Source: an uncultured Fibrobacteraceae bacterium | Lineage (GTDB): Bacteria > Krumholzibacteriota > Krumholzibacteriia > LZORAL124-64-63 | Length of the DNA stretch: 53,506 nucleotides | Reading direction: 5' to 3' | NCBI GenBank assembly: GCA_964630845.1 | Contig: CAZVWL010000001.1 | Coordinates: 1 to 53,506 of the forward strand | Shown: one piece after another, positions 7,272 to 52,712 of the stretch | How positions within the stretch are numbered: the stretch's first letter is position 1 | Layout: each line of letters opens with the position of its first letter | The notes under the pieces: model-generated | Seen by the model: the letters and a program-made list of their open reading frames with translations, nothing else | What the model was told of the DNA's origin: nothing | Databases searched by the model: none | Made by a program: the position numbers and the translations under genes

Positions 7272-7317
7272 TTCTTTATCGGTTTGCAATAGACAGCCAA
7301 ACCTTGGACTGTATCCA

Positions 7318-11636: not shown

Positions 11637-12560
11637 GTGCTCAAGACGATGCGCCGGGTGGCTCAGATCGAGTCGGCCGAGTCCTCCAACCGCATCGAAG
11701 GAATCGAGGCCCCGCGTCGGCGCATCCAGGGCCTGGTCATGGGGGGGGCCGCACCGGAGAATCGATCGGAACAGGAGATCGCCGGATACCGCGATGCTCT
11801 GTCCCTTGTGCACGAATCGGCTGCCCACATCGAGCCGACCGCCAACGTCATCCGGCAGCTTCACACGACCATGTACCGCTACCTGCCTCAGCCCGGCGGC
11901 AACTGGAAGATGGTCGACAACGAGATCGTCGAGCGCGATGCGACCGGAGTCCTGCGCGTGCGGTTCAGGCCGGTCTCCGCGGTAGCCACGCCGCAGGCCA
12001 TGGACGACCTCGCGATAGGATTGCGGCGTGCCCTGCACGCGGAGCAGCGCCCGGGGCTCATCGTCGCGCCCCTGGCCGTGCTCGATTTCCTCTGTATCCA
12101 CCCGTTCACCGACGGCAACGGCCGTGTGTCGCGGCTGCTGACCCTGCTGCTGCTCTACCGCCTGGGCCATGAGGTTGGACGCTACATCAGCCTCGAGCGC
12201 ATCACCGAGGAGTCGAAAGAGACCTACTACGAGGCGCTCGAAACGAGTTCGCGCGGCTGGCACGAGGGCCGGCACGATGCCCATCCGTGGCTCGACTATT
12301 TCTGGGGCGTTCTGCTGCGGGCCTATGCCGAGTTCACCGAGCGTGTCGGCAGCTTGCAACAGGGTGCCGGCAGCAAAGCTGCTCTCGTGCGCGAGGCCGT
12401 CGCGCGCATGATCGGCCCGTTCGCCCTGAACGACATCGAGCTCCAGTGCCCTGGAGTCGCCTTGCCCACGATCAAGCGGGTACTGGCGGCCATGCGCGAT
12501 GAGGGGCTGGTGTTGCTCGAGGGCCGGGGGCGGGGGGCGCGGTGGCGGCGGGTATCATAG
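11637..12560 (+). CDS. Fic family protein (class II, N-terminal inhibitory helix), N-terminally truncated by an in-frame TAG
   Basis: Fic motif HPFTDGNGRVSRLL and inhibitory-helix motif SNRIEG. A GTG at 11637 immediately follows TAG 11634-11636. Family-like coding sequence continues upstream in the same frame from GTG 11514. Confidence 0.8.
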   Translation: MLKTMRRVAQIESAESSNRIEGIEAPRRRIQGLVMGGAAPENRSEQEIAGYRDALSLVHESAAHIEPTANVIRQLHTTMYRYLPQPGGNWKMVDNEIVERDATGVLRVRFRPVSAVATPQAMDDLAIGLRRALHAEQRPGLIVAPLAVLDFLCIHPFTDGNGRVSRLLTLLLLYRLGHEVGRYISLERITEESKETYYEALETSSRGWHEGRHDAHPWLDYFWGVLLRAYAEFTERVGSLQQGAGSKAALVREAVARMIGPFALNDIELQCPGVALPTIKRVLAAMRDEGLVLLEGRGRGARWRRVS

Positions 12561-35671: not shown

Positions 35672-36133
35672 GTGTCTACGGTCATCCGTTTGCGTGTATC
35701 CTTGCTCGGGTCTATGAAGGTATACCGAGTTCTAGATGCGGCCTCGAATGCCACGTTTAAGGCTCTTCATGATGCGATCTTCCATGCGTTCGATCGGAAT
35801 GACCCGCATCTGTACAGCTTCTACATGACGGGAGTTGACACTAAAAGCATTCAGCGGATCCGGCGATCCCCCGAAATTGCCGCGCCTGCGGTCGGGGTTG
35901 GAATCGGTATATTCGGACCCAGGGGTTCCGGTACTTCGGCAGCGAAAGCCAGGATCCGAGATTTCGAACTCGAAGAGGGGGATGTGTTCCACTACTTGTT
36001 CGACTACGGAGACGAATGGTGGCATCGGATCCTGGTCGAGGCGGTCTTGGAATCGGAAATCTCAAAGAAGAGCGGCGTTGTCCATGCGAAGTCGATCGGG
36101 GCGTCGCCGCCGCAGTACTCTGATTTCGATTAG
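35672..36133 (+). CDS. pRiA4b ORF-3-like (PRiA4_ORF3 / IS1096-TnpR-like) domain protein
   Basis: Pattern ...LRVSLLGS..VYRVLDA..ATFKALHDAIFHAFDRNDPHLYSFYM...GDVFHYLFDYGDEWWHRILVE.... GTG start follows AAGGAG. This is the first gene of the lower-GC region. Confidence 0.6.
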   Translation: MSTVIRLRVSLLGSMKVYRVLDAASNATFKALHDAIFHAFDRNDPHLYSFYMTGVDTKSIQRIRRSPEIAAPAVGVGIGIFGPRGSGTSAAKARIRDFELEEGDVFHYLFDYGDEWWHRILVEAVLESEISKKSGVVHAKSIGASPPQYSDFD

Positions 36134-36447: not shown

Positions 36448-39400
36448 TCACCCCGATGCCCGGTACGTCAGCCCGAACACCGTGTCCGTCATCCAGCGCC
36501 TGAAGCCCTCGTTGTCCATAAACTGCTTGAACAGCTCCGTGTCGTCCTTGAGGACGGCGGTCATAACGCGCTTCAGGGCCTCGTCGTGCTCGATCTTCGC
36601 GTTCTGCCGGTCGGAGTTCTTGCGAGCGTTCTGGTACCGCGGATCGGCGGCTACGCGCGCGGGGATGTCCTCGGTGATGAGCTTGTGCACGCGGTCCTTG
36701 TCGGTCCATGGGATGTTGCCGAACTGATCGTTGAAGGTCTTGAGGATGTTCGACAGCAGGTCCAGTTCGGGCTCGGGCTTGTGGCCACCGCCGGTGGTCG
36801 GTACGGGGTCAATCTCGGAGTCCGCGTCGGGGAGAAGGATCTTCGCCGCCGCCTTCTTCTCCACCCGGTAGCTGTCCATATCGATCGCTTCGAGGATACC
36901 CTTGGCCAGGTCCTCCTCGACGGGCGCCGGCAATTTGGGCACGAGGAAGTTGAGGAAGATTGAGAGCTTCTCCCAGTCGGCATTGGAGTAGGGCAGGATC
37001 GACGAGAGGAAGCCGTATGCACGCAGGAAAGCCTTAGCTTTGCCCTTGAAGTCCACCTGCCCGTCCTCGTCGAGCCGCTCGCGGTAGTCGGCGACGCACG
37101 CGTCGAGGATGGGGTCGAGCCGATCGCGGTCCGCCCCGCCCAAGTAGAGCGCTACCAGCTCGTCCACCTGTGCTGGGGCATAGACCTGGTAGCCGTCGAG
37201 CGCGCTCTTCAGGTCGTGCAGCTTGTTCGGGTCGGTCTCCTCGGCCAGGATCGTCGTGCGGTAGTAGTCGGCGAACGCCTGCTGGATGACGTCGGCGTCG
37301 TTCATGAAGTCGAGCACGAACACGTCGTGCTTCTTGGGGTGCGCGCGGTTGAGCCGCGAGAGTGTCTGCACCGCCTTGATGCCAGAGAGCACCTTGTCGA
37401 CGTACATCGTGTGCAGCAGCGGCTCGTCGTAGCCGGTTTGGAACTTGTCGGCGCAGATCAGGAAGCGGTACGGGTCCTTCCGAATCGTGTTGGCGATCTT
37501 GCTTGATGCGAATCCGTTGAGCGACGCTTCGGTCACCTTCGCGCCGCCGTACTCGTGCTCGCCCGAAAAGGCTACGATCGCCTGGTAGCGGCTCTTTCGC
37601 TCGGCCAGGTAGTCGCCGAAAGCGTGGTAGTACTGAATCGCACGTTCGATCCCGCTGGTCACCACCATCGCGCGCGCCTCACCGCCGATCTTGCGCAGCG
37701 CCAGGACTTGCTCGTGGAAGTGGTCCACCATGATCTCGGCCTTGAGCCGGATCGCGTGGTCGTGGCTCTCGACGTAGCGGCGCAGCTTCTTCTTCGCCCG
37801 CTTGGTGTCGAACTCCGGGTCGCCCTCGACCTTCTTGACGAGCTTGTAGTAGCTCTCGACCGGCGTGTAGTGCTTGAGCACGTCCAGGATGAAGACCTCC
37901 TGGATGGCTTGCTTCATCGTGTAGCTGTGGAAGGGCCGGTGCTTCACCGTGCCGTCGGCCTGTGGCTCAGGCGCGCCGAAGATCTCGAGTGTCTTGTTCT
38001 TGGGCGTGGCGGTGAAGGCGAAGTAGCTGGCGTTGGGTAGCAGCTTCTTCGCTTCCATGAGCCGGATAATCGCGTCTTCGAGCGTCTCGTCGTCTTCCTC
38101 GACGCCGGCCGTGGAGAGCGCCATCGAAAGCGAGGCCGAGGTCCGGCCGCCCTGGCTCGAGTGTGCCTCGTCGATCACGATCGCGAAGCGCCGTCCGCGG
38201 TGCTCGCTGCCAATCTCGTCGAGGATGAACGGGAACTTCTGCACCGTGGAGATGATGATCTTCTTGCCCTCGGCGATGTACTTGCGGAGATCCCCGGAGC
38301 GGTCGGCGTGCCCGACCGTGGCGCCCACCTGGGCGAACTGCTTGATGGTGTCCTTGATCTGCTGGTCGAGGATTCTGCGGTCGGTGACGACGATGATCGA
38401 GTCGAAGACCGTCGCTCCATTCTTTTTGAGCCCGATGAGCTGGTGCGCGAGCCAGGCGATGGAGTTCGACTTGCCGCTGCCCGCCGAGTGCTGGATCAGG
38501 TAACGCCTGCCCGCGCCGTTCGCCCGCGCGTCGGCGAGCAACCGGCGCACCACGTCGAGCTGGTGGAAGCGCGGCCAGATCTGCAACGTCTTCTTCCGAC
38601 CGGTCTTCTCGTCCTTGGTCTCGACGACCTGCGCGTAGTTCTCGAGGATGTCGGTCAGGCCGTCGCGGGTGAGGACCCGCTTCCAGAGGTAGTCGGTCTT
38701 GAGGCCGTCCGGGTTGGGCGGATTGCCTGCGCCGTCGTTCCAGCCCTGGTTGAAGGGCAGGAACCACGAGTCCTTGCCCTTCAGGTGCGTGCAGAAGCGC
38801 ACCTCGTGGTCGTCCACGGCGAAGTGCACCACGCAGCGGCCGAACTCGAAGAGCTTCTCGCGCGGGGCCCGGTCACGCTGGTACTGCTCGACGGCGTCGG
38901 CGACCGTCTGCTTGGTCAGGCTGTTCTTTAGCTCGAAGGTGGCGACGGGCAGGCCGTTGATGAATAGGCCCAGGTCGAGTGCGCGTTGAGTCTCGTCGCA
39001 GCTGTACTTGAGTTGCCGCGTGACGCTGAAGCGGTTCTGGGCGTAGCGCTCGGCGGCCTTTGTGTTCCCCGGCGATGGCGTGCCGTAGAAGAGGTCGAGG
39101 TGGTGCGGCCCGTGCTTGAGCCCGTGGCGCAGCACGTCAATGGTGCCGCGCTTGGTGATCTCGCCCTGGAGCCGCGCCAGGCACTTGCGCCTCGTCGGCC
39201 CGTCCTGACCGAGGTCGAGGGCGTCGGCCACGTCCGGCTGGGTCTCGCGCAGGAAGGCCGAGAATTGGGCTAGGTCAACGCAGTATTCGCGGTCGTAGTC
39301 CTCGGGGGCACCGCAGATCCAACCTGCGCCGTAGGCGGCCGGGCGTTCGTGGACGGCGTTGGCCTTGAACGTGCCCGGATCGCAGGCCGCGCCGGTCAGG

Positions 39401-39450
39401 GCCGTGCAGATGAGGCGTTCGAGGCCGCGCTCGGAGGTGTCGGTGGTCAT
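36448..39450 (-). CDS. hsdR: Type I restriction endonuclease subunit R
   Basis: PD-(D/E)xK motif DLGLFINGLPVATFELK, Walker A HSAGSGKSNS and DEAH box VIDEAHSSQ. The SF2 motor and C-terminal helical domain total 1000 aa. Confidence 0.9.
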   Translation of the reverse strand: MTTDTSERGLERLICTALTGAACDPGTFKANAVHERPAAYGAGWICGAPEDYDREYCVDLAQFSAFLRETQPDVADALDLGQDGPTRRKCLARLQGEITKRGTIDVLRHGLKHGPHHLDLFYGTPSPGNTKAAERYAQNRFSVTRQLKYSCDETQRALDLGLFINGLPVATFELKNSLTKQTVADAVEQYQRDRAPREKLFEFGRCVVHFAVDDHEVRFCTHLKGKDSWFLPFNQGWNDGAGNPPNPDGLKTDYLWKRVLTRDGLTDILENYAQVVETKDEKTGRKKTLQIWPRFHQLDVVRRLLADARANGAGRRYLIQHSAGSGKSNSIAWLAHQLIGLKKNGATVFDSIIVVTDRRILDQQIKDTIKQFAQVGATVGHADRSGDLRKYIAEGKKIIISTVQKFPFILDEIGSEHRGRRFAIVIDEAHSSQGGRTSASLSMALSTAGVEEDDETLEDAIIRLMEAKKLLPNASYFAFTATPKNKTLEIFGAPEPQADGTVKHRPFHSYTMKQAIQEVFILDVLKHYTPVESYYKLVKKVEGDPEFDTKRAKKKLRRYVESHDHAIRLKAEIMVDHFHEQVLALRKIGGEARAMVVTSGIERAIQYYHAFGDYLAERKSRYQAIVAFSGEHEYGGAKVTEASLNGFASSKIANTIRKDPYRFLICADKFQTGYDEPLLHTMYVDKVLSGIKAVQTLSRLNRAHPKKHDVFVLDFMNDADVIQQAFADYYRTTILAEETDPNKLHDLKSALDGYQVYAPAQVDELVALYLGGADRDRLDPILDACVADYRERLDEDGQVDFKGKAKAFLRAYGFLSSILPYSNADWEKLSIFLNFLVPKLPAPVEEDLAKGILEAIDMDSYRVEKKAAAKILLPDADSEIDPVPTTGGGHKPEPELDLLSNILKTFNDQFGNIPWTDKDRVHKLITEDIPARVAADPRYQNARKNSDRQNAKIEHDEALKRVMTAVLKDDTELFKQFMDNEGFRRWMTDTVFGLTYRASG

Positions 39451-39816
39451 GGGGCCATCCCTCTTCTGCTCGCGATCAAGTACCCGTCAAGGACCGCGCG
39501 TCGCGCCGCCCTGTGGCGGGTCGCTGGGCCGGCTTGACTAGGTCCTTTACTAATTCCTTTGCTAATCACGCCTTACTCACCGAAATCTAGTAAAGGCGTA
39601 ACTATTTGTTTCGTCGCGACTTGCGCGTTTCTTGGCGCTTTTTGAACTACCACCCCAAGGTCGTTTGCAACGGTCTACTCGTTCAGCCGTGTCTGGACTC
39701 CATCAACTACCCGTCAACTACCCGAAAACCAGTATAACGCGTTGGTCTGCCTACGTTTCCAACGCAGTGCACCCCGATTGGCCACGCTAGTCCCCGTTGT
39801 TCGTCAACAAAAACGG

Positions 39817-41283
39817 TTAGGCCCAGTAGGGGACATAGGCCCGCAGTTTGTCGGCCACATCCTCGTTCACCAGCCGGATCATTCCGGCTTCGAGTGCCTC
39901 CCGGAGCAGCCGCGACGCCGTAGCCTTATTCGCCGGCGCAATCCCAAAGCGCGCCCGAACCGAGGTATTGTTCATCGGCGTTCGGGTCACATACCGCAGA
40001 CACGCGTGCAAATAGCACGCCCGGACGCGGTCCTGTCGATCCATGTCCCGCAGATCCCTGTGGGCGAAGAGGACCGTCCGAGTGAACCCCTCCGGGCTCT
40101 CGAAAAGCGGCGCCGGGAGCTGGAACAGCTCGACCTGGAAGACGACCTTGTCGATCCCGCTACCGCGCTCCTCGCAAATCCGGAACCGCCGCATCAGCGA
40201 AGCGAGAGCCTCGTTGCGCGAGCGGGGCGGCGTGTCCACGAAGCGTTGCGTGTCGACCAGCGGCTCGCCGGGATTCGTGATCTCGATGCGGTCGTCGAAG
40301 ATCTCGACCATCGGCCCGCTGCCGGTGACGAAGAAGTCCTGGTGGATCAGCGCGTTGGCCACCAGCTCACGCACCGCCAGCTCCGGGAACATAGGCACGG
40401 ACCTGCGCAGCGCCTGTTCGATCACCTCGTTGGCCGGTAGCAGACCGTTGATGTACCCGACCAGCCCTTCGAAGCCGCAGGCGTAACCCTTGGCGCCTTC
40501 CTGCTCCTTGAGTGTCTCCGTGCGGCCTTTGCCGCGGTACTGGATCATGCGCACGGCCTTGCGCCGCAGCGTGTGGAAGGCGTCGAGCCGCTTGGCGAAT
40601 AGGACGGCGCCAAGGTTCGTGATATCCCAGCCGCCGGCGTCACTTCGGCGGATCAGTCGGTCATCGGCGAGGGCTGCGAGGATGCCGTCGCGGTTCGAGG
40701 GTAGGGTCCGCTCCAGCAGGTCGAAGTATGCCGGGTAGTCGAGCAAGCGGAGCACGTCATCGCCGGTCGCGCGCTCGGCCGCGATCCCGTCCTCGAAGGG
40801 AGTCTGGTCGAAGATGCGCCACAGGGCCCGTTCCTTCTCCGGGTAGTCCTTGAGCTTCTTTTTGTAGGTGCCGATGCGGATGAACTCCTGGCCCGAGAAG
40901 CGCACGGGGCGGCGGGCGGCCCGCGCGATCTCCAGCAGGACGACGCGGTGTCCGTCGATTTCGACCGTGAAGAAGCGAAAGTCGATCTTGGGGTCGAGCA
41001 GCCGCAGCAGCCAGCTCTCCAGCTCCTCGTTGCCGACCTTGGCAGAAAGAGGATTGAAGGTGGTCCCAATCACCGTGTGGTCCTCGTCACGCACGCCCCA
41101 GACCAGATAGGCGAAGGCCTTGCCCACGAGCGCGGCCGCGTTGGCCAGCGCTGAGATGTACTCGCCGATGGCCTGCGGCTCGGTCTCGTTAACCTTGAAC
41201 TCGAGAAACTCGGTCTCGCGCGGCAGCGCGCACAGCTCGCGCACGAGGCTTGCGAGGTAGTCGGCAGGCCGGTCGCCGGTCAT
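39817..41283 (-). CDS. AlbA_2 (Schlafen-like) + HATPase_c_4-like + C-terminal wHTH protein embedded in the R-M operon
   Basis: N-terminus ...ETEFLEFKVNE...GEYISALANAAALVGKAFAYLVWGV... is AlbA_2-like. The middle segment ...RELVANALIHQDF...IEITNPG... is HATPase-like. ATGA overlap with the hsdS stop. Confidence 0.7.
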   Translation of the reverse strand: MTGDRPADYLASLVRELCALPRETEFLEFKVNETEPQAIGEYISALANAAALVGKAFAYLVWGVRDEDHTVIGTTFNPLSAKVGNEELESWLLRLLDPKIDFRFFTVEIDGHRVVLLEIARAARRPVRFSGQEFIRIGTYKKKLKDYPEKERALWRIFDQTPFEDGIAAERATGDDVLRLLDYPAYFDLLERTLPSNRDGILAALADDRLIRRSDAGGWDITNLGAVLFAKRLDAFHTLRRKAVRMIQYRGKGRTETLKEQEGAKGYACGFEGLVGYINGLLPANEVIEQALRRSVPMFPELAVRELVANALIHQDFFVTGSGPMVEIFDDRIEITNPGEPLVDTQRFVDTPPRSRNEALASLMRRFRICEERGSGIDKVVFQVELFQLPAPLFESPEGFTRTVLFAHRDLRDMDRQDRVRACYLHACLRYVTRTPMNNTSVRARFGIAPANKATASRLLREALEAGMIRLVNEDVADKLRAYVPYWA

Positions 41284-42197
41284 GCCTCGGCCCCCTCGGG
41301 GATCTCATCGGCATCGTTGGCGCTTGCCTCGTCGATGTCGTCGTCGGCTTCATCGAGTGGCTCGTGCTCCTCGGCCTCGTCCGGCAGCCGCGCCGCCGCC
41401 TCGCGCACGTCGAGCTTGCCGGTTACAACGTCGGCGATCAGGCGGGTGCGGTACTCGCGGAGGAGGGCGATTTCGTTGCGCACGCGACCGGCCGTCGAAT
41501 CGATCTCACGGCAGGCTTCATCAAGCGCGTCAGCGATCTCCTTCTGTTCATCGGGTGGCGGGTAGGCGGACGGCATTCGCTTGAAGTCCTCCCAGTACAA
41601 ACGATTGCGGTCCTTCACAATTCCGCGCGAGAACTTGTCCACCTCTCCCATGTAGGCGGCCGTCTTGAAAAGTCGCTCGAAGTACCGTGGCACTGTCCCC
41701 TGCAGCGGCTTGGCCACGACGTAGGCTGGGCTCACCAAACCGTCGATCGGTGCGAATCCGACCGCACCCTGCCACATGCGCATCATATTGTATGCGATGT
41801 CGCCGCTCCGAGCGCGCTTGTACTTGTTGCGATCCGTCATCACCTGTTTGCGATCGGGACTATCGAGATCACGGATGCGTACGCCCGTCCGCAGTGACAC
41901 CGCGAGAATGGGTAGATCTCCAAAGCCAACCTCGTTCCTCTGAACGAACAGGCGTCCGTTCCGTCGTACCTCCCAATGCTCCGGCACATCCCCCAGCCAC
42001 TCCACGCCGGAGGGCTTGAGGCGGACGTTGGGGTCGAGGCCGCGGGTGACGGCGCGGTGGATGATGGCCTGCTTCTGCTCCTCCAGCAGCTTGATCAGCT
42101 TCTGCTTGGCGCGGATGTAGCGCCGGATCCGCCGGTCCGCGTGGTCGAGGAAGCGGACGATGGCGGTTTGTTCGGGGAGGGGGGGGCAGAGAGCCAA
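41280..42197 (-). CDS. hsdS: hsdS C-terminal half (central conserved region, TRD2, distal conserved region, acidic tail); downstream frame of a frameshifted hsdS
   Basis: It contains ...PPLPEQTAIVRFLD... and a second ...WLGDVPEHWEVRR... TRD entry motif, then ...EQKEIADALD...LLREYRTRLIADVVTGKLDV. It overlaps ORF 42095..42712 in a different frame. Confidence 0.85.
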   Translation of the reverse strand: MALCPPLPEQTAIVRFLDHADRRIRRYIRAKQKLIKLLEEQKQAIIHRAVTRGLDPNVRLKPSGVEWLGDVPEHWEVRRNGRLFVQRNEVGFGDLPILAVSLRTGVRIRDLDSPDRKQVMTDRNKYKRARSGDIAYNMMRMWQGAVGFAPIDGLVSPAYVVAKPLQGTVPRYFERLFKTAAYMGEVDKFSRGIVKDRNRLYWEDFKRMPSAYPPPDEQKEIADALDEACREIDSTAGRVRNEIALLREYRTRLIADVVTGKLDVREAAARLPDEAEEHEPLDEADDDIDEASANDADEIPEGAEA

Positions 42198-42712
42198 ACG
42201 GACTTGATTGCTGCATGCGAGAGCCCATATCGCGTGACACCGTTTGCCTCGACGTGAAACTGGTACTGCGCAGCCGTGCTCTGAAGCGCGCGAAGAAGAT
42301 ACTCTCCCGATAGGTGCGTACTGAACGGGCGAAGAAGAGCCAAGTGGTATCCGCTAATGAGATCGGTCGCGGTCTCTCGCACAAGCGCAGGGACCCCGAT
42401 GTCATCCCAGGCTTCCGAGTCTTTCGTGATGAGTACGTCGCCAACGGTTAGGCGGAAACGCTCGACTTCATCCCTCGTCGCCGTAGCCCGCATGAGGCCC
42501 ATACTCGGGCGGATGTAGTCGTTCTTGTAGACGTCAACGTAGTTGCAGAGGCGAACAGTTTCCTCGTCATCTTTGGTGTGCTTGTCTACGTTACTGACGC
42601 GCACGTCGACCAGGTTGCGGAGCCGTCTCACCGCCCAATGCTCCGGCACCTGTCCCAGCCACGGCACGCCGGAGTCCTTCATCGCGGGATAGGGCTTGAG
42701 GCCGTCGATCAT
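42095..42712 (-). CDS. hsdS: hsdS N-terminal half (TRD1); upstream frame of a frameshifted hsdS
   Basis: Entry motif ...VPWLGQVPEHWAVRRLRNLV.... After the C8 tract the frame runs into a Pro/Ser-rich nonsense tail. ATGA overlap with the helicase stop. Confidence 0.85.
   Translation of the reverse strand: MIDGLKPYPAMKDSGVPWLGQVPEHWAVRRLRNLVDVRVSNVDKHTKDDEETVRLCNYVDVYKNDYIRPSMGLMRATATRDEVERFRLTVGDVLITKDSEAWDDIGVPALVRETATDLISGYHLALLRPFSTHLSGEYLLRALQSTAAQYQFHVEANGVTRYGLSHAAIKSVWLSAPPSPNKPPSSASSTTRTGGSGATSAPSRS
42179..42186. repeat. G8 (C8 on the coding strand) homopolymer at the hsdS frameshift point
   Basis: Counted directly. C9 or C6 would join the two hsdS ORFs as ...IKSVWLSAPPLPEQTAIV.... 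Confidence 0.85.
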
Positions 42713-45700
42713 GACTCACCTTCCATAATCGACCAAACCCGATGGTAACTAGACCCGCGTTCGCCCATTGCCTTCGTCCACACGTTTACGTCGGCTGCGC
42801 GGAGCCGACCGCGAAGTCGGTGAAGAGGTTCGTCGGCCTTGACCGCGAGTTCCTTTGAAAGCGCCGGCGCTGCCGTCCTAGGTACGCCGAGCAACCTGAG
42901 CGCGACCGCCTCGTCGGTGTCTACGCCGTAGTACACACGGGCCGGGATATTGCGAAGGCTTCGCTGGTCGTCGGGTGACAACTCGTCAATGCTGCTCCCC
43001 AGCGTCAGAGACTGAAGAGCGGACAGCCCCCACGATGTGGTCTGGGTTAAGCGCCCGAAGATACTTTTGCAGCACTTCGTCATTGCGTCGACAGGATCGG
43101 TGGCTGCTTCGTCGCTCTCTTCCTCGACAGATTGGCTGAAGTAGTCTATCGCCATCTCAGTGAGCGGACGCCCCTGTACCCAATCGCAGACGATTCTAGC
43201 CAGCTTGTCGCCGTCTGGGCTTGTTCCCCCTGTCACATCTTCGAGTGACTCTCGTAGCTCTGGGACTTGCAGCAGTAGCCCCATCAGTCGCCGCAGGTCA
43301 TCTCTGCGACCTGTGAATAGCTCGGGTGACCAGACGTCATTCGGTAGATTCTCTTGACCGATCCGCGCGAGGGTGGCGTTGACCGACTCCCACGAGAACC
43401 CAGTGGCATCGACGAGGGCGAGCGGTTTTCCCTTGATGCGCTCGGCATACGCATACACGCCTCGCACTAAGGCGTCGGCCCAACCCTTGTGGCTTCTTCG
43501 GAGAGCTTGGAAGCCGAGCGTGCCCCGCAGTACCTGCTCCACCTGTGCTGCGAACAGTTCGTGGTCGCCAATCTGACGGTAGGTATGCGCCAGGTACTGG
43601 ACGAAGGCGGACCAGCCTGGCTGGTGTGACAGGGACTCCAACCTCAGCAGCTCGTCCGTGTTAGCCACTGACTTCACCATGTCGACCAGAGTCGAGTTCA
43701 GCTCGGCGACCGCTTCGTCGATGAACGCCTCGAGCTTCTGCTGCTTGGCGTCATCCTGAGCCGCGAGGGCCACGACGCCGAGATCTCCCTGGTCCACACG
43801 GCCGGCCCGCCCAGCGATGTTCCAGAAGTCCTGGGGGGGCATGTCAATGTGGTACGGGAACTTCCGCGACTGGTACTGATGGCTGGCAAATACGACTCCA
43901 GACACCGGGAAGTTCACACCCTGCGCGATGGTTGTTGTCGCAACTAGCACGCCCAAGCGGTCGTTCTCCGTCAACCACTCCACGAGTGCGCGAGTGTCCT
44001 CGGACATGCCTGCGTGGTGCACGCCGACACCGTATTCCAGCAAACTCGCTAGCGGGAAATCTTGTCCCATCTCGTCGACCAGGAATCGCCGAATGTGCCC
44101 GAGGTCGTCATCGTTGACGGTGCGCTTGTTCTCATCGACCTTGAGCGTGGCGGCAATTTGCCAAGTTGCCCGTGGTGTGCCAGCGAGTACGATGACCGTG
44201 CCCCGCTTCTGAAGGACTTGGGCCGTGGTTGCGGCGATCTTTCCGGGCGAATTCTTCACCGCTGACCAAGCCAAGCCGAGCGGGCGCGAGCCTCCGATGC
44301 AAATCTGCTCGGGAATGTCGAGGGTCTTGCGCGTGGTGTGTCGCGTATGAAGGGACAAGCTGAACTCGCCCTTGCCCTCGCCACGGTCCACCCGGGCAAT
44401 CGCCACCACGCGGTCGTTAGGTGTCCAGTCCACGCCGAGGTCGATGCTTTTGTTGCTGTCGGGGGAAAGCCAGCGAGCGATCTCCGCGCCATTCTGGATG
44501 AACGGCGTCAGCAGGAGGAACTGCGCGTAGCGACACTCTCGGTTGATTGTTGCAAGAAGCAGTTCGAGCTTGAGACCGCGGGCCCCGGAAGACAGTCCGT
44601 GTGCCTCGTCCACGACGACCAGCGTAAGGGGACGCCCGATCTTCTCTTCCCAGCCCCCTCGGAGCATCAGGTCCAGCTTCTCGGGCGTAGTCACAAGGAT
44701 GCGGAACTGCTGGTTTCGGTCGGCCTCAGTCAACATCCCGGCCTCAAGGCCATCGACCTCAAGTGCTGGGCTCACCTTCTCTACGACGGTCCGAAGGTGG
44801 GCGAAGTCTCGACGCAAGCGCGTGGTTAGCTGATTCACTAGAGCCCGCGTAGGCGCCAGGTAGGCGATCCAGCCGTTCTCCTGGTCGAACTGATTCAGCG
44901 CCTGGAGGATCCGAAACTCCGCGATGAACGTCTTGCCGCTCGACGTTGGCAAGCTCACTACGACCGAGCGATGACCTGAAACAAACAGACCTTCTTCGCG
45001 AAGCGTCCGCCTTTGGGGCGGCAGCATCTCGAAGATGGGGCGCCTTCGATCCCGGGCGGTTAGCGACTCAACGAACCTGGTTACCGTACTGTTCACCGCG
45101 CGAGTGACTGTCCATATGCTGTTGTCGACCATCACCCTAGCGGACAGCGCCAGAAGCCGCGACATCGTCTCTCGCTCAATCAACTGCCCGCGGGCTGAAG
45201 CCCCGATTGCTCGGTCGAACTGGGCCTCGAGCTGCTCGCGGATGTCGAAGTGACCATCGACTGATCCCTGGCTGACGTAGGCGCCCAGAATCTCCGCGGC
45301 CCTCGCCAAATGATAGTTGGCTATCAACTCCCACGCTGGCCGCGCGTCCTCGCGCGCTTCAGCTTCCTTCAGGAATCCTGGCTCGACAGTCCGCTGGGCC
45401 TGACGAATTGCGACGATCCGCTTCTGGACAGCATCGAGGTCGTCCCAGCCCTTCTTTCTTAGGAGCCGCAACCAAACGTCCAGGACCGATGACCAGACCC
45501 GGACACCCCAGTCAGGCGAATCGAGAGGGAGGGCTGGAAGTTCGCACTCCGTGACGATGCGCCGGAAATCGGCCGAGCGATCACCCAGGGCCGCAATGCA
45601 GCCCAGGCGTACGAGCCACTCCGCTACGGCAATGGGCTCGTCAGGCCACGCCAGCGTTCTGGCGATCTGGAACGTCTCCGCAGCTACGGCACGGAGTTCG

Positions 45701-45897
45701 GCCACGCGCTCCTCGTCTTGCATGGCATCGAAAAGCTGCAGCTCCAGCGCATTGGCGACGAACTGAAGCTCACGGTCGTCGACCTCTCCAGTCGGCGTTC
45801 CGAGTGCGTTCGTGAGCCTGCGTCGACTTGCCTCGGTCGCTGAGAGGCGAAGCCGATCCTCGCCGACTGCCGTTTTGAGCCAAGCGCCTGCTGTCAT
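42709..45897 (-). CDS. Large SF2 (Ski2/COG1204-like, DEAH) helicase; HamB-like candidate
   Basis: Motifs LPTSSGKT, YLAPTRALVNQ, VVVDEAHGL, LVATTTIAQGVNFP and NIAGRAGR. They are flanked by an N-terminal region of about 300 aa and a C-terminal region of about 350 aa with no recognised motif. Start set to ATG 45897 (ATGA overlap) rather than the track start 45927. Confidence 0.8.
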   Translation of the reverse strand: MTAGAWLKTAVGEDRLRLSATEASRRRLTNALGTPTGEVDDRELQFVANALELQLFDAMQDEERVAELRAVAAETFQIARTLAWPDEPIAVAEWLVRLGCIAALGDRSADFRRIVTECELPALPLDSPDWGVRVWSSVLDVWLRLLRKKGWDDLDAVQKRIVAIRQAQRTVEPGFLKEAEAREDARPAWELIANYHLARAAEILGAYVSQGSVDGHFDIREQLEAQFDRAIGASARGQLIERETMSRLLALSARVMVDNSIWTVTRAVNSTVTRFVESLTARDRRRPIFEMLPPQRRTLREEGLFVSGHRSVVVSLPTSSGKTFIAEFRILQALNQFDQENGWIAYLAPTRALVNQLTTRLRRDFAHLRTVVEKVSPALEVDGLEAGMLTEADRNQQFRILVTTPEKLDLMLRGGWEEKIGRPLTLVVVDEAHGLSSGARGLKLELLLATINRECRYAQFLLLTPFIQNGAEIARWLSPDSNKSIDLGVDWTPNDRVVAIARVDRGEGKGEFSLSLHTRHTTRKTLDIPEQICIGGSRPLGLAWSAVKNSPGKIAATTAQVLQKRGTVIVLAGTPRATWQIAATLKVDENKRTVNDDDLGHIRRFLVDEMGQDFPLASLLEYGVGVHHAGMSEDTRALVEWLTENDRLGVLVATTTIAQGVNFPVSGVVFASHQYQSRKFPYHIDMPPQDFWNIAGRAGRVDQGDLGVVALAAQDDAKQQKLEAFIDEAVAELNSTLVDMVKSVANTDELLRLESLSHQPGWSAFVQYLAHTYRQIGDHELFAAQVEQVLRGTLGFQALRRSHKGWADALVRGVYAYAERIKGKPLALVDATGFSWESVNATLARIGQENLPNDVWSPELFTGRRDDLRRLMGLLLQVPELRESLEDVTGGTSPDGDKLARIVCDWVQGRPLTEMAIDYFSQSVEEESDEAATDPVDAMTKCCKSIFGRLTQTTSWGLSALQSLTLGSSIDELSPDDQRSLRNIPARVYYGVDTDEAVALRLLGVPRTAAPALSKELAVKADEPLHRLRGRLRAADVNVWTKAMGERGSSYHRVWSIMEGES

Positions 45898-46694
45898 GGT
45901 GTTCCCCCATGGAGCAAAGCTGGCCAATCCTCGATCGGGACAGGAAGATACCAGGCCGTAATCTCAATGCGCGTCGGGCTGCCCAGGCTCTCCGCGAGGT
46001 ACTTGGCGCGGGTAGTCACATCTAACTCATTGGGATCCGTATCGCGAAGGAGAATTCCCACGAGGAGGATTTCCTTCCCAAGAGACTGCACATACCGCTG
46101 AACCGCTGCCTGATAGAGCGCCCTGTGCTCCCTCGATTCGCACCGCGCGCGAAGCCACTTCAGCAAAGCGTGCTGGATGTCGAGGCGTGTTGCTTCGTCC
46201 TTCAGCTGCCACGGCATGCCCCCGCTCCCGTTCATGACGTTGGGGGGCGTTTTTGCGTCGGAGGAGGTCTTCACCTCTCCGAAGAGCAAGAGGACCGCGT
46301 CGTCCTCCTTGCAGAAACCGACCAGATCGGCGCCGGGCAGGCTTGCCCTAGGCGTGCGGCGGTCGCGCACGAGATTCCATGGCCAGCAGATCTCTCGCGC
46401 GTCGTCGTCAGCTAGAACACACTCGGCCAGGGCTTCGCCGACCGCCCATGACTTCTCCATTGGGACCGCTCGAAGGAGCTTCTCGACGAACTCGATGGCC
46501 ATCCCTGTTGTGGCCATGCCGCGGAGTTCGGCGGCGAACGGATCCCGGGCTTCGTCGTCTTCTACACGCGCGCTGACTCGGTCTGCGACGTAGGATTTGA
46601 ATCGGTTCTCGTCCACGACCGCATGGCCACGCCACCGCGCAGAGCCCATGATCCCCGAGTAGCAGAGTTCCGGTGCGAGAGCAGCAACCGTCAT
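45894..46694 (-). CDS. PD-(D/E)xK-like nuclease candidate; HamA(DUF1837)-like?
   Basis: This is the 266-aa 3' part of track ORF 45894..47321, from ATG 46694, which overlaps the hsdM stop. The motif is SLPGADLVGF, 11 aa, then LLLFGEVKTS (D123/E140/K142). The upstream part of the track ORF is out-of-frame over hsdM. Confidence 0.6.
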   Translation of the reverse strand: MTVAALAPELCYSGIMGSARWRGHAVVDENRFKSYVADRVSARVEDDEARDPFAAELRGMATTGMAIEFVEKLLRAVPMEKSWAVGEALAECVLADDDAREICWPWNLVRDRRTPRASLPGADLVGFCKEDDAVLLLFGEVKTSSDAKTPPNVMNGSGGMPWQLKDEATRLDIQHALLKWLRARCESREHRALYQAAVQRYVQSLGKEILLVGILLRDTDPNELDVTTRAKYLAESLGSPTRIEITAWYLPVPIEDWPALLHGGTP

Positions 46695-48673
46695 GGCTTG
46701 CCTCTCCCGGTGATCTCGCCCAGCAGTCCCTCGGTCTCCTTCTCCAGCGCCAGGATGTCCGCCCGGATCTCCTCCAGCGTGCGCAGCGGTTGCGGCTTGT
46801 AGAAATAGCGGGTGAAGCTGATTTCGTAGCCTATCTTGACGCTGTCCTCCACGTACCAGGCGTCGCGGGCGTGCGGCAGCACCTCGCGACGCAGGAAGGC
46901 CTCGATGCCGCCCTCTTCGAGCAGCGGCACCTGTTCGGTGTCGCGCAGATCGGTGTCGGGCTCGTACTCGACCACGGCAGGCTTGCCACCGATGGTGGCC
47001 TCGAACAGGCCGCGCAGCCGATCGGCCGCGATGCCCTTCTTGTGGATCTTCCTGATGACCGGCGGGGCGTCGTCGGCGCGCTCGGTCGTCTCCTTGAGCG
47101 CCTTGATCTCCTTTGCGGCGTAGGCGCGCTCGGGATCGATGCCGTTCAGACGCAGCGGGCGCTCGACGGTGACCTTCCAGTAGCCGAAGGCGGGGTTCGG
47201 GAAGATCTTCGACTGCTCGGTCTCCTGGAAGGCGAGGAAGGTGTCGCAGATGCGCACGATGTCTTCGCCCGACAGCTCGCAGTTCTTCTTGCCCAGGTTC
47301 TTGCGCAGCGGCTTGAACCACTGCGTGGCGTCGACGAGCTGCACCATGCCCCTGCGGTTCTCCGGCTTGCGGTTCGACAGCACCCAGATGTAGGTGGCGA
47401 TGCCGGTGTTGTAGAACATGTTGAGCGGCAGGGCGACGATGGCCTCGAGCCAGTCGTTCTCGATGATCCAGCGGCGGATGTTGCTCTCGCCCTGGCCGGC
47501 GTCGCCGGTGAAGAGCGAGCTGCCGTTGTGCACCTCGGCGATGCGGCTGCCGAGGGCGGTGGCGTGCTTCATCTTGGAGAGCATGTTGGCCAGGAAGAGC
47601 ATCTGGCCGTCGCTCGAGCGGGTGACTAGCGAATACTCCGGATCGCCCGCGTGCTCGATCAGGAAGCGCGGGTCCTTGAGTCCGCCCTTGCCGCCCATGC
47701 GCTCGAGGTCGCCTTTCCAGCTCTTGCCGTACGGCGGATTGGAGAGCATGAAGTCGAACTCGCGCGAGGGGAAAGCGTCGTTGGCGAGCGTGGAGTGCTC
47801 CGGCCCGCCAACGATGTTGTCCGCCGCGTCGCCCTCGCCCTTGAGCAGGAGGTCGGCCATACAGATCGCGTAGGTCTCGGCGTTGATCTCCTGGCCGTAG
47901 AGGTGGGTCGCGACCTCCTTACCGTGCTGCCGCGCGAGTTCCTGGAGCGTCTCCTCCGCGACCGTGAGCATGCCGCCCGTGCCGCAGGCGCCGTCGTAGA
48001 GCAGGTAGGTGCCCGACTCGATCCGGTCGGCGATGGGTAGGAACATGAGCTTCGTCATGAGCCGCACTGCGTCTCGCGGCGTCCAGTGCTCGCCGGCCTC
48101 CTCGTTATTTTCCTCGTTGAACTTGCGAACCAGCTCTTCGAATATCGAGCCCATCCCATGGTTATCGAGGCCGGGATGCTTCACCGAGCCATCGCCGTTC
48201 ATGACCGGGTTCGGGCTCAGGTTGATGTCGGGCGAGAGAAACTTCTCGATCAGCGTGCCCAGCGCGTCGGCCTTCGAGAGTCGCGGGATCTGGTTGCGGA
48301 ACTCGAAGTTCTCGAGGATGTCCTGGACGTTCGGGGAGAAGCCGTCGAGGTAAGCCTCGAAGTCGGCTTTGAGCTGCTGCTGGCTGGCGCGGGCCTTGAG
48401 GTCGCGGAGCGTGAACTTCGAGGTGTTGTAGAACGCCTGCCCGGCTGCCGTGCGCAGGGCCTGGTCCTGGTTGGTGATCTCGGCTTTGTCGAGCGACGCC
48501 TTCATGTCGAGCACGGCCTGCTTCGTCGGCTCAAGCACGGCGTCGAGACGGCGTAGGACCGTCATGGGGAGGATCACGTCGCGGTACTTGCCACGGACGT
48601 ATAGGTCGCGCAGGACGTCGTCGGCGATGCCCCAGATGAAGTTCGCGATCCAGTTCAGCTGGCCTTGTTCCAT
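46691..48673 (-). CDS. hsdM: Type I R-M N6-adenine DNA methyltransferase subunit M
   Basis: HsdM N-terminal domain (...IANFIWGIADDVLRDLYVRGKYRDVILPMTVLRRLD...), SAM motif DGACGTGGML and catalytic NPPYG. Confidence 0.92.
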   Translation of the reverse strand: MEQGQLNWIANFIWGIADDVLRDLYVRGKYRDVILPMTVLRRLDAVLEPTKQAVLDMKASLDKAEITNQDQALRTAAGQAFYNTSKFTLRDLKARASQQQLKADFEAYLDGFSPNVQDILENFEFRNQIPRLSKADALGTLIEKFLSPDINLSPNPVMNGDGSVKHPGLDNHGMGSIFEELVRKFNEENNEEAGEHWTPRDAVRLMTKLMFLPIADRIESGTYLLYDGACGTGGMLTVAEETLQELARQHGKEVATHLYGQEINAETYAICMADLLLKGEGDAADNIVGGPEHSTLANDAFPSREFDFMLSNPPYGKSWKGDLERMGGKGGLKDPRFLIEHAGDPEYSLVTRSSDGQMLFLANMLSKMKHATALGSRIAEVHNGSSLFTGDAGQGESNIRRWIIENDWLEAIVALPLNMFYNTGIATYIWVLSNRKPENRRGMVQLVDATQWFKPLRKNLGKKNCELSGEDIVRICDTFLAFQETEQSKIFPNPAFGYWKVTVERPLRLNGIDPERAYAAKEIKALKETTERADDAPPVIRKIHKKGIAADRLRGLFEATIGGKPAVVEYEPDTDLRDTEQVPLLEEGGIEAFLRREVLPHARDAWYVEDSVKIGYEISFTRYFYKPQPLRTLEEIRADILALEKETEGLLGEITGRGKP

Positions 48674-49082: not shown

Positions 49083-50458
49083 GGCTCTCCTGGTATGATT
49101 ATGGGCGAAACTGCCCCGCCCAACCCAGTCTAACCTCTATTCTATCATAGAAATACGCACGGAACCATGGCTCAATGGAGTTGCAACACTTCAAAACGAG
49201 CCAAGGAGGGTTCCGTGCGCCTGACTACTGTACTGCATCGGCTGATCGCCGTCACGTCCATCTTCGTGCGCGAGTTTGAGCTGACCAAGGGGGGCCTGAT
49301 CCTCGATGTCCGCCCGACCTGGCGCCGGCCTCGGTGCAATCGGTGCCAACGTCGCGGCGCGATCTACGACACCCAGGCGCCCCGGCGATGGCGGCACCTC
49401 GGCCTCGGCAGCCTGCGCGTCTGGTTGCGGTACGCACCCCGGCGAGTCCATTGTCGCCACTGCGGCGTCATCCGCGTCGAGCACCTGCCGTGGGCCGTCT
49501 CCGGCTCCGGGTTCACGCTCGCCTTCGAGGAGTTGTGCGCCTACCTGGCCCAGATCACCGACCGGACCTCGGTCACCAGGTTGCTGGGGATCGACTGGCG
49601 TACCGTCGGCGTGATCGTCGGCCGGGTCGTCGATCGCAAGCTCGATCCAGGCCGGCTGAAGGGCCTGCGCAGGATTGGTGTCGACGAGTTCAGCTACCGC
49701 AAGCGCCACCGCTATCTGACGATCATTGTTGACCACGACCGGCGTAGCGTCGTCTGGACTGGCGAGGGCAAGGGCAGAGAAGCCCTGACACGGTTCTTCG
49801 CGGAGATCGGCGCAGAAGCCTGCCAGCAACTCGAAACAGTGACCATGGACATGTCGGCCGGATACCGTCGGGCCGTCCTCGATCACGCACCGCAGGCGCT
49901 CATCGTCTTCGACCGCTTCCACGTCCAGAAGCTCGCCGGAGAGGCGCTCGACGAGGTGCGCCGCGAGGTCATGCGAGGAGCCGACGACGGGGATCTCAAG
50001 AGAGCCATCAAACGGTCGCGCTGGTCGCTGCTGAAGGCCGCCGACGATGTCACCGAGAAGGACGAGCGCAAACTTAGTGACATCGAGCGAGCCTACAAGC
50101 CGCTCTACCGGGCGTACCTGCTGAAGGAGGTCCTGCGACGTGCGCTCTCCAGAAAGCAACCGTGGCGGGCGCGGCGCGATCTTCAGGAGTGGATCGGCTG
50201 GGCAGCACGGTCGCGTCTGGAGCCATTCAAGCGCCTCGGCAAGACCATCCGCAACCATCTCGATGGCATCTTGGCCTACGTCGAGATGCAGCTGACCAAC
50301 GGGCTGGTCGAGGGGATCAACGCCAAGTCAAGAATGATCGCCCGGCGAGCGTACGGCTTCCATAGCGCTCACGCGCTGATGGCCATGATCATGCTATGTA
50401 GCGGGGGCATCATGCTGTCGCCGGCGCTGCCGTGACCCACAATGTTACCAGGAGAGCC
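49083..50458 (+). mobile_element. ISL3-family insertion sequence (1376 bp)
   Basis: The terminal inverted repeats are GGCTCTCCTGGTA... at 49083 and its complement ending at 50458, with 13 nt perfect. They are flanked by the 8-bp direct repeat CAATTCAG and enclose one transposase gene. Confidence 0.85.
49167..50435 (+). CDS. ISL3-family transposase
   Basis: zf-ISL3 cysteines (...RCNRCQRRG...HCRHCG...). DDE_Tnp_ISL3-like core ...IGVDEFSYRKRHRYLTIIVD...VTMDMSAGYRRAV...DRFHV.... Confidence 0.9.
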   Translation: MAQWSCNTSKRAKEGSVRLTTVLHRLIAVTSIFVREFELTKGGLILDVRPTWRRPRCNRCQRRGAIYDTQAPRRWRHLGLGSLRVWLRYAPRRVHCRHCGVIRVEHLPWAVSGSGFTLAFEELCAYLAQITDRTSVTRLLGIDWRTVGVIVGRVVDRKLDPGRLKGLRRIGVDEFSYRKRHRYLTIIVDHDRRSVVWTGEGKGREALTRFFAEIGAEACQQLETVTMDMSAGYRRAVLDHAPQALIVFDRFHVQKLAGEALDEVRREVMRGADDGDLKRAIKRSRWSLLKAADDVTEKDERKLSDIERAYKPLYRAYLLKEVLRRALSRKQPWRARRDLQEWIGWAARSRLEPFKRLGKTIRNHLDGILAYVEMQLTNGLVEGINAKSRMIARRAYGFHSAHALMAMIMLCSGGIMLSPALP

Positions 50459-51536: not shown

Positions 51537-52712
51537 CTACGGTCGCGCCTCAGCGATCTCGCGCGCCAGCGCAGGCAGCGATACCGCCTGGACGTCGCCG
51601 CTAATCGGATACGTCTCTTCGCCCGGATACACCAGGTACCGGCGCTCGGGCGACAGGTCTGCACACGCGCTGAAGTAACCCTTCCTCGGGTGTGGGGCGA
51701 GGCTGCGCTTGACCTCGACCGACCAGAGACGTCCGCCTGGAAAGTGCAGAAGCAGATCGATCTCGGCGCCGCCACTGGTGCGGTAGAAGAAGCCGTGCAC
51801 CCCCTCCGGGGCGGCGGCCAGGAGCTGCTCGATCGCGAATCCCTCCCAGCTCGCGCCCACCACCGGATGAGCGAGCAGGGTCTCCTTGTCCCCGATGCCC
51901 AGCAGGGCATGGACCAGGCCGCTGTCGCGAACATAGACCTTCGGCGACTTGACCAGACGCTTGCCGACATTGGTGTGCCAGGACGGCAGCCGCCGCACCA
52001 GCAGCAGGTCTACCAGCAGGTCGATGTAGCCGCCCACGGTCTTGACGTCGACGCCGAGGTTGCGCGCCAGCTGCGCGACGTTGAGCAGCGAACCCTGGCC
52101 GTGGGCGAGCATGGTCCAGAAGCGGCGCAGACGCTCGGCGGCCAGGCGTGGACCGAACTGCGGGATGTCGCGCTCCAGGTAGGTGCGGATGAAGTCCTGA
52201 CGCCAGCGCAGGCTGCGTGGGCCGCTGGGCGCCAGGAAGCTCTCGGGAAAGCCGCCCCGCAGCCACAGGCGGTCGCGGTCGGCTGCCTCTGCACCGACCT
52301 CGAGGACATCGAAGGGATGCAGTTCCAGGTAGCTGACGCGGCCGGCGAGGGTCTCACCGGACTGGCGCAGCAGGTCGAGCGATGCGGAGCCCAGGAGCAG
52401 ATAGAGTCCGCTGCGCCGGCCGGCGCGCCGCGCGCGATCGATCAGCCCGCGCAGGACGGGGAAGAGCCCGGGCGCACGATGGACCTCGTCCACGACGACG
52501 AGCTTGTCCAGGTGATCGGCCAGATACAGCTCCGGCTCGGCGAGCTTGGCGCGGTCCTGCTCCGACTCCAGGTCCAGATACAGGGCGTCACGCTGGCTGG
52601 CCAGGGCCAGGGCGAGCGTGGTCTTGCCCGCCTGGCGTGGTCCAAGTAGCACGACGGCAGGGACTTCGTCGAGTCGTTGCGTGAGTTCGGGGAGGATTCG
52701 CCTGGTTTTCAT
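51537..52712 (-). CDS. AAA-family ATPase (AAA_14 + DUF4143 type)
   Basis: Walker A GPRQAGKTT and Walker B LVVVDEVH. The DUF4143-like C-terminal half reads ...LAHGQGSLLNVAQLARNLGVDVKTVGGYIDLLVDLLLVRRLPSW.... Confidence 0.85.
   Translation of the reverse strand: MKTRRILPELTQRLDEVPAVVLLGPRQAGKTTLALALASQRDALYLDLESEQDRAKLAEPELYLADHLDKLVVVDEVHRAPGLFPVLRGLIDRARRAGRRSGLYLLLGSASLDLLRQSGETLAGRVSYLELHPFDVLEVGAEAADRDRLWLRGGFPESFLAPSGPRSLRWRQDFIRTYLERDIPQFGPRLAAERLRRFWTMLAHGQGSLLNVAQLARNLGVDVKTVGGYIDLLVDLLLVRRLPSWHTNVGKRLVKSPKVYVRDSGLVHALLGIGDKETLLAHPVVGASWEGFAIEQLLAAAPEGVHGFFYRTSGGAEIDLLLHFPGGRLWSVEVKRSLAPHPRKGYFSACADLSPERRYLVYPGEETYPISGDVQAVSLPALAREIAEARP

Follow-up and report, generated by a model that had tools for sequence, protein, structure and literature searches.

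Organization of the operon

Analysis of a 53,506-nucleotide stretch of DNA from an uncultured Fibrobacteraceae bacterium (GenBank assembly GCA_964630845.1, contig CAZVWL010000001.1, positions 1 to 53,506 of the forward strand; hereafter the window) revealed two adjacent genes, one encoding a 266-aa protein with nuclease motifs and one a 1062-aa superfamily 2 (SF2) helicase, located between hsdM and hsdS of a type I restriction-modification (R-M) operon. The pair is probably a divergent Hachiman-type defence module which was recombined as a cassette into the R-M operon and is expressed from it.

The operon is tightly packed on the minus strand and consists of hsdM, the small open reading frame (ORF), the helicase gene, hsdS, a gene encoding a protein with AlbA_2 and HATPase_c_4 domains, and hsdR. 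The type I methyltransferase gene hsdM (46691..48673, 660 aa; Pfam HsdM_N and N6_Mtase) is followed by the gene encoding the putative HamA-like PD-(D/E)xK nuclease (45894..46694; PADLOC PDC-M23A), in which the predicted catalytic stretch D123 ... E140-x-K142 (GADLVGF ... FGEVKTS; 46269..46328) is defined by family conservation and by alignment with HamA. The gene encoding the HamB-like helicase of the Ski2/Hel308 type (42709..45897; PADLOC PDC-M23B), assigned by PADLOC, Pfam, PDB and Foldseek comparisons, includes motif I (Walker A, PTSSGKT, residues 317-323) at 44929..44949 and motif II (DEAH, residues 430-433) at 44599..44610, both of which are invariant in 66 homologues. These are followed by the specificity subunit gene hsdS, present as two ORFs (41280..42712; Pfam Methylase_S on the second part), the gene encoding a 488-aa protein with SLFN_AlbA_2 (Schlafen-like) and HATPase_c_4 domains (39817..41283; Pfam 1.4e-17 and 1.9e-23), and the restriction subunit gene hsdR (36448..39450, 1000 aa; Pfam HSDR_N, SWI2_SNF2, ResIII and T1R_D3-like). 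According to the junction sequences, hsdM and the small ORF, the small ORF and the helicase gene, the helicase gene and hsdS, and hsdS and the AlbA_2 gene all overlap by the 4 nt ATGA, and a 366-bp intergenic gap separates the AlbA_2/HATPase_c_4 gene from hsdR.

Judged by Pfam domains the type I R-M set of hsdM, hsdS and hsdR is complete in the window, with a 1-nt frameshift in hsdS. The gene is split by a -1 frameshift at a C8 homopolymer (42179..42186, read directly from the sequence) into ORFs at 42712..42095 and 42197..41280; one extra C in this tract would restore the conserved hsdS central region ...SAPPLPEQTAIVRFLD..., and an intact hsdS homologue is present in the related operon of locus L007. 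Possible explanations of the shift are an error in sequencing the homopolymer, a mutation that made hsdS a pseudogene, or slipped-strand phase variation of R-M specificity.

Similarity of the helicase to HamB

The helicase is a full-length match to the PADLOC model PDC-M23B (PDLC04531; E = 0, 1342.9 bits, residues 5-1061 on profile positions 5-1060 of 1060), and it also matches more than 20 PADLOC hidden Markov models (HMMs) of HamB1 and HamB2 (best 1.1e-53), two of the HamB models spanning residues 169-743 and 201-925. Pfam domains DEAD, ResIII and Helicase_C were detected, as were the motifs PTSSGKT, VVVDEAHGL, ATTTIAQGVNFP and AGRAGR, which confirms the ORFs and motifs that the first-pass annotation had described between hsdM and hsdS. 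A phmmer search of the PDB retrieved HamB (8vx9_B, 7.7e-20) among Ski2-like helicases.

The AlphaFold2 (AF2) model of the helicase, built from 66 diverse homologues collected with a distant homologue as search query, has a predicted local distance difference test (pLDDT) score of 86.5 and a predicted template modelling (pTM) score of 0.86, and is all-helical at residues 1-300 and approximately 730-1062. The top three Foldseek matches in the PDB were HamB chains (E 1.9e-27 to 1.2e-24), the best being 8VX9_B from E. coli, with query-normalised TM scores of 0.70-0.71 over approximately 1146 aligned columns; Hel308/Hjm ranked after HamB, with TM scores of 0.42-0.48 for the core only. Because the HamB alignment runs full length, the flanks on either side of the helicase core, in which the first-pass annotation had recognised no motif, are predicted to correspond to the accessory domains of HamB, and in the model they superpose on its N- and C-terminal domains. 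In the E. coli ECOR31 system HamA is bound by an N-terminal helical domain of HamB that other Ski2 helicases lack, and the substitution D431A in the DEAH motif of HamB abolishes function (Tuck et al., 2024; PMC12278908). According to AF2 and Foldseek, the window helicase has such an N-terminal HamA-binding helical domain (NAH), for which the HamA-binding role is predicted. The sequence matches and the model together identify the protein as a HamB. An assignment as a Hel308 orthologue was considered and rejected, HamB being clearly closer by structure.

Remote similarity of the small protein to HamA

Regarding the small protein, it is a full-length match to the PADLOC model PDC-M23A (PDLC04527; 6.1e-92, residues 8-262 on profile positions 6-259 of 263). 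Taken alone it matched no family in Pfam or NCBIfam, and phmmer against the PDB gave as its sole match a chance one to a sugar kinase. Homologues of the small protein number 1211, an exhaustive search returned 442 cluster representatives, and 84 diverse full-length relatives with 28-65% identity to the query and a mean column identity of 34% were used for an alignment (A1). Residues E87, G121, K142, S144 and Q163 are invariant across these 84 relatives, and D123 and E140 are kept in at least 90% of them. The residues SLPGADLVGF and LLLFGEVKTS, highlighted by the first-pass annotation, are present, with D123 to K142 at nt 46328-46269; since invariant and near-invariant residues stand out in a family of such low mean column identity, the motif exceeds chance.

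The A1 profile matched exactly two of 177,635 PDB sequences, both of them HamA (8vx9_A, E 0.058, and 8vxy_A). In this alignment the segments 'GEalA', 'GaDLVGf' and 'GEVKt' of the family coincide with 'GEIFA', 'GEDVIGI' and 'TEAKS' of HamA, and E140 and K142 fall on HamA E138 and K140; 8vxy_A is the HamA E138A/K140A mutant, and both residues are experimentally essential (Tuck et al., 2024; PMC12278908). The Pfam family PF08878 HamA (formerly DUF1837) was matched by 16 of the 84 relatives (best E 2.4e-5) and is the only Pfam family matched by more than one of them, while the PADLOC HamA1 models were matched by 17 and 11 relatives (PDLC00159 by 17, best E 2.5e-6). Comparison of A1 with HamA fragments by hhalign gave a probability of 75%; a 103-aa HamA fragment used as a search query retrieved truncated HamAs only. 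With nine full-length annotated HamAs, drawn from annotated plasmid and viral Hachiman loci, hhalign gave 92.7% in local mode (E 4.3e-7, 183 columns) and 96.4% in global mode (225 columns). A HamA scan of viral contigs gave two loci, and in precomputed Pfam annotation the genes paired with related helicases are marked 'HamA', mostly with a flag for weak matches.

The AF2 model of the small protein has a pLDDT of 95.6 and the core order alpha-beta-beta-beta-alpha-beta expected of PD-(D/E)xK nucleases, with E87 placed in a helix, D123 where the second strand begins and E140-x-K142 in the third strand. Its identification as a remote HamA homologue is well supported. Cap4- and Mrr-type nucleases were considered as alternatives for the small ORF and rejected, as neither family recurs among the 84 relatives. 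A separate observation concerns a 1409-aa coding sequence annotated as HamA on the Nostoc sp. UHCC 0926 plasmid pn3 (L033, 4342-8571), which is a HamA-HamB fusion; its N-terminal 265 aa score best with the PDC-M23A family profile among the canonical HamAs tested (25.9 bits).

Correspondence to the candidate system PDC-M23

The locus is an instance of PDC-M23, a candidate already catalogued in PADLOC-DB, and with full-length matches of both proteins to PDC-M23A and PDC-M23B the suggestion of an undescribed nuclease-helicase module is set aside. According to the accessible parts of the source publication, PDC-M23 originates from a 'guilt-by-embedding' screen for cassettes located inside Hma, BREX, DISARM and type I R-M loci; seven systems from this screen passed validation, and 145 were made public, untested, as 'phage defence candidates' (Payne et al., 2024; bioRxiv 10.1101/2024.01.29.577857). 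The entry in its supplementary table reads CAS_00096, count 161, 'Assign as candidate PDC-M23'; the same table merged other cassettes into Gabija and IetAS models and kept PDC-M23 separate. In the searched parts of that publication no link between PDC-M23 and Hachiman was found, and its main text contains neither 'Hachiman' nor 'HamB'. The same parts describe nested defence genes in type I R-M loci as not unusual, contrary to the expectation of the first-pass annotation. A literature search on Hachiman-like, HamA-like or HamB-like proteins found nothing relevant.

Pairing and genomic contexts of relatives

Sixteen genome loci encode a small protein 70-89% identical to that of the window; they were obtained with a single-protein query and hence include close relatives only. 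The helicase gene directly follows the nuclease gene in all 15 informative close loci, the hosts of which are metagenome-assembled genomes (MAGs) of Acidobacteriota, Gemmatimonadota, Gamma- and Alphaproteobacteria, Bdellovibrionota and Desulfobacterota as well as Thiorhodococcus. The pairing is kept in relatives down to 31-35% identity and was also detected in Geobacter sulfurreducens (L036, CP074693.1) and the archaeon Methanosarcina barkeri Wiesmoor (L034, CP009526.1), giving a patchy distribution across bacterial phyla and archaea.

Regarding genomic context, the pair occurs in at least three different type I R-M arrangements. In the window, in L007, in L010 and, in degraded form, in L014, it is flanked by hsdM and hsdS of a single R-M lineage, with remnants in L008 and L016. 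In L003 and L005 the hsdS and hsdR genes that flank it belong to a different type I system (confirmed by Pfam), and in L022 it follows yet another hsdM. No R-M genes were found near the pair in L001, L002, L004, L006, L012, L013, L015, L024 and L034, the last being the locus of M. barkeri. About half of the close relatives stand alone, and the pair is not tied to R-M loci. Stand-alone pairs often lie beside insertion sequence (IS) elements or other defence genes, and elsewhere the pair adjoins IS elements, AbiEii, NACHT or DUF6361 genes. Frameshifted or truncated copies occur in L013, L014, L015 and L016. The pair is a self-contained, autonomous and mobile cassette.

In L001, L002, L005, L006 and L012, grouped here as stand-alone copies, a conserved stretch of approximately 100 nt precedes the small gene. 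Translated, it looks like the C-terminal end of an ORF that has decayed ('...LIEHGI.V.KRT.EVLTVD.DTFADLEGDA*'). This ORF overlaps the small gene at its end by ATGA or GTGA, and its C-terminus may resemble that of Mrr-type restriction endonucleases. This stretch may carry the cassette's own promoter or leader. Beside the stand-alone pair of L012 three clustered minus-strand genes (2341-8583) encode a DUF6361 protein, a 604-aa protein that belongs to no family and a DEAD/Helicase_C protein of 1079 aa; they may represent a further defence system of this island.

Mosaic structure of the operon and selection on the pair

The G+C content at third codon positions (GC3) is 0.72 for both genes of the pair versus 0.92 for hsdM and 0.91 for hsdR in the window, and the same contrast was found in L007. 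Comparison of the window operon (36448-48673) with that of L007 (1129-13380) showed a nucleotide identity of approximately 0.87 across hsdM, which falls at the junction of hsdM and the small gene to approximately 0.75 over the pair. The target-recognition domains of hsdS are unalignable between the two operons and the hsdS central region is 0.97 identical, while identities are approximately 0.45 for the AlbA_2 gene and 0.86 for hsdR. Synonymous divergence (dS) is 0.49-0.56 for hsdM and hsdR and 1.6-1.7 for the pair. The operon is a mosaic with a backbone of hsdM, the hsdS centre and hsdR, in which the pair, both hsdS target-recognition domains and the AlbA_2 gene have been swapped. As nucleotide identity and dS differ between the pair and hsdM/hsdR, the cassette and the R-M backbone have different histories.

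A possible trace of such an exchange was detected in L014, a Gemmatimonadaceae MAG in which the pair is frameshifted. Directly upstream of the small gene (9575-9852) this locus carries 78 nt duplicated from the hsdS 5' end and, after them, approximately 197 nt duplicated from the hsdM 3' end, and the second copies of these hsd segments are in their normal places (8183-8380 and 13811-13888). The duplicates look like the scar of a homologous or illegitimate recombination event that imported the cassette with hsd 'arms'. Such a scar suggests transfer of the cassette from operon to operon with short hsd arms attached, which would explain the ATGA junctions on both of its sides.

The ratio of nonsynonymous to synonymous divergence (dN/dS) is 0.05-0.13 for both genes of the pair in comparisons with several relatives (dS about 1-2.9), and the pair is under strong purifying selection. 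Both proteins retain 70-89% amino acid identity across Acidobacteriota, Gemmatimonadota, Proteobacteria and Bdellovibrionota with synonymous sites near saturation; high protein identity at such dS therefore indicates very strong constraint and not recent transfer alone.

Other genes of the operon and the window

The AlbA_2/HATPase_c_4 gene is a further embedded gene, located between hsdS and hsdR. Its product gave weak matches to Argonaute-associated models in PADLOC and nothing stronger, and the gene in the corresponding slot of L007 encodes a protein with 34% identity to it. The hsdS-hsdR slot seems to be a second place in the operon where cassettes are exchanged.

Outside the operon, an ISL3-family transposase gene (49167-50435, plus strand) lies approximately 500 bp upstream of hsdM, with an AAA_14/DUF4143 ATPase gene (51537-52712, minus strand) beyond it, and a PRiA4_ORF3-like gene (35672-36133, plus strand) is present on the other side of hsdR. 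The G+C content of the window is 0.70-0.75 over the first 34 kb and 0.60-0.66 from approximately 35 kb, a drop consistent with an acquired island; no tRNA genes were found as island borders. Genes encoding an AbiEii-type nucleotidyltransferase toxin (8103-9020, plus strand) and a Fic/DOC-domain protein (11637-12560, plus strand), candidates for further defence or toxin genes, sit in a patch of lower G+C content (0.61-0.68).

Proposed function of the pair and alternative explanations

The most likely function of the pair, by analogy, would be Hachiman-type DNA degradation triggered by DNA damage. In a mechanism modelled on HamAB of E. coli ECOR31 (Tuck et al., 2024; PMC12278908), the HamB-like helicase would bind the HamA-like nuclease through its N-terminal helical domain and keep it inactive while surveying DNA; 3' single-stranded ends or other damage generated by infection would enter the helicase, ATP-driven ratcheting of which would release or activate the nuclease, and the nuclease would then degrade DNA non-specifically via E87, D123, E140 and K142, aborting infection. 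Complex formation, the trigger, nuclease activity and an anti-phage phenotype of the pair are what we infer from this analogy, and the sequence shows the parts needed for the Hachiman mechanism to be present and conserved.

The Hachiman-like reading put forward in the first-pass annotation is borne out for the helicase, which resembles HamB by HMM, by PDB sequence and by full-length structure, and for the small protein as a remote HamA homologue with D...ExK in register. The HMM comparisons assigned DEAD, Helicase_C, PADLOC HamB and PDC-M23B to the helicase, and PDC-M23A, not DUF1837, to the small protein. Foldseek comparison with HamAB structures, made with separate AF2 models, agreed with the proposal for the helicase, for which HamB provided the top three matches.

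Several observations weigh against a Hachiman-type defence module. Foldseek of the small-protein model against PDB and BFVD gave no significant match (in the PDB none with E <0.001), and HamA was absent among the 50 matches listed; the best matches were the type IIS nucleases Nt.BspD6I and FokI with E of approximately 0.1, the class to which HamA is reported to be most similar in structure (Tuck et al., 2024; PMC12278908). The small protein of the window has no Pfam or PADLOC HamA match and no relative attains the PF08878 gathering score (e.g. P0146 with 19.8 bits versus 25), so that the caution of the first-pass annotation about DUF1837 was justified, and the protein lies outside strict PF08878/DUF1837 membership at the curated threshold. 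In the accessible parts of Payne et al. (2024; 10.1101/2024.01.29.577857), PDC-M23 is among the 145 predicted candidates and not the seven validated systems, and the searchable literature yielded neither an experiment on PDC-M23 nor a paper text naming it. As hsdS of the host operon is frameshifted, R-M activity is uncertain and the locus may be partly decayed; the junction sequences moreover leave no gap in which the embedded pair could have its own promoter.

Regarding the relationship between the pair and its host operon, the simplest benefit of embedding is that the pair is transferred and expressed together with the R-M genes. It may also be functionally coupled with restriction, given that Hachiman senses DNA ends of the sort that HsdR makes; the many free-standing copies disfavour such coupling as a requirement. 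A stronger version, in which the R-M-embedded form is more than a passenger, seems unlikely: homologous recombination at the conserved hsdM 3' and hsdS 5' ends, used as arms, would carry the cassette from one type I R-M operon to another, with footprints visible in L014 and in the mosaic of the window and L007, and the cassette would act together with the R-M enzyme, its HamB-like sensor being triggered by HsdR-made ends on unmodified phage DNA or by restriction failure. If true, one transcript would join a first line that is sequence-specific to an abortive second line that is independent of sequence.

Alternatively, rather than being autonomous, the pair could serve the type I R-M enzyme as a functional accessory, either as a back-up effector when anti-restriction proteins inhibit the R-M enzyme, as with PrrC/EcoprrI, or as a processor loading on HsdR-cut ends. 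The ATGA overlaps that couple the pair translationally to hsdM and hsdS, its recurrent embedding at the hsdM|hsdS and hsdS|hsdR positions of type I systems of different lineages, the activation of Hachiman by DNA ends and damage, which restriction would supply (PMC12278908), and the case of PrrC, cited in the accessible parts of Payne et al. as found almost solely inside type I R-M loci (10.1101/2024.01.29.577857), are all compatible with such a role. It is nevertheless unlikely, since about half of the close relatives, as well as the M. barkeri pair, have no R-M genes nearby, the dS of 1.6-1.7 versus 0.5 and GC3 of 0.72 versus 0.92 point to a history separate from that of hsdM and hsdR, and the embedded copies lack any domain specific to them.

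A decaying or silent remnant, with genes intact by chance or only just inactivated, is a less probable explanation still. The frameshifted hsdS, the ISL3 transposase adjoining hsdM and the damaged pair copies in four of the related loci would fit it, but in the window both ORFs are complete, keep every catalytic motif and evolve at the low dN/dS given above, and the hsdS shift amounts to a single C in the C8 tract, possibly a sequencing error or phase variation. Least probable, and very much so, is a housekeeping or mobile-element helicase-nuclease of DNA repair or recombination (Hel308-like) located in the R-M operon incidentally: the helicase is also similar to the repair helicases Hel308, Hjm and PolQ, and the pair of Methanosarcina barkeri sits among metabolic genes, but HamB clearly beats Hel308 as structural and HMM match, the nuclease partner is HamA-like, the distribution is patchy, and the pair lies repeatedly in or beside defence genes and IS elements.

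Comparison with known systems

The Ski2-like helicases Hel308/Hjm and Brr2/ASCC3 share the RecA1-RecA2-WH-ratchet core (WH, winged helix) and give strong sequence matches, but they lack the HamB-aligned N-terminal helical domain (query-normalised TM score 0.45 vs 0.71) and a paired nuclease gene.

PrrC is an anticodon nuclease encoded in a type I R-M operon, and its target is tRNA. The arrangement of PrrC/EcoprrI resembles that of the window in that a gene for a second-line effector is inserted between hsd genes and shares their transcript; neither the proteins nor the target are related, and PrrC is almost always embedded, whereas the pair of the window type is often free-standing.

AbpAB, a Hachiman variant of E. 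coli, likewise combines a Ski2-like helicase with a HamA-related partner and is activated by DNA damage or by the phage protein that binds single-stranded DNA (SSB). In AbpAB a Cap4-type nuclease domain is fused to an inactive HamA-like domain, whereas the predicted nuclease of the window is a single-domain protein that keeps the catalytic D/E/K residues and has no Cap4 domain.

Among the closest known systems, Hachiman type I (ECOR31, PDB 8VX9/8VXA/8VXY; PMC12278908) has the same order of nuclease then helicase gene, co-oriented and with overlapping frames, a nuclease of likewise approximately 260 aa with GE, GxD and ExK in the same register, and a Ski2/Hel308-like helicase with extra N- and C-terminal helical domains, HamB being the best full-length match of the window helicase. 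There are also differences. The window nuclease is below the Pfam and PADLOC HamA thresholds, HamA is not among its listed Foldseek matches, its identity to HamA is approximately 17% in the hhalign alignment, and its family has conserved residues of its own (W83, PP150-151, Q163, R217, D225 and Y249); the helicase is approximately 110 residues shorter than ECOR31 HamB, with 16-18% identity in the structural alignment, and in the window the pair is expressed as part of a type I R-M operon.

From PDC-M23 the window pair shows no architectural difference, having the same architecture, gene order and embedded context. For the window alone this is another instance of a catalogued system; PDC-M23 itself would belong to Hachiman as a divergent branch, which makes it a system of recognisable kind and not an undescribed module. 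An uncharacterised PADLOC candidate that is widespread, from bacteria to Methanosarcina, is now linked to a mechanistically understood family, and this link gives it a testable mechanism, named catalytic residues and culturable carriers. Present HamA/DUF1837 models miss the whole of this Hachiman branch, so that Hachiman is probably under-counted in defence censuses, and the operon mosaic is a clear example of defence cassettes swapped into type I R-M operons.

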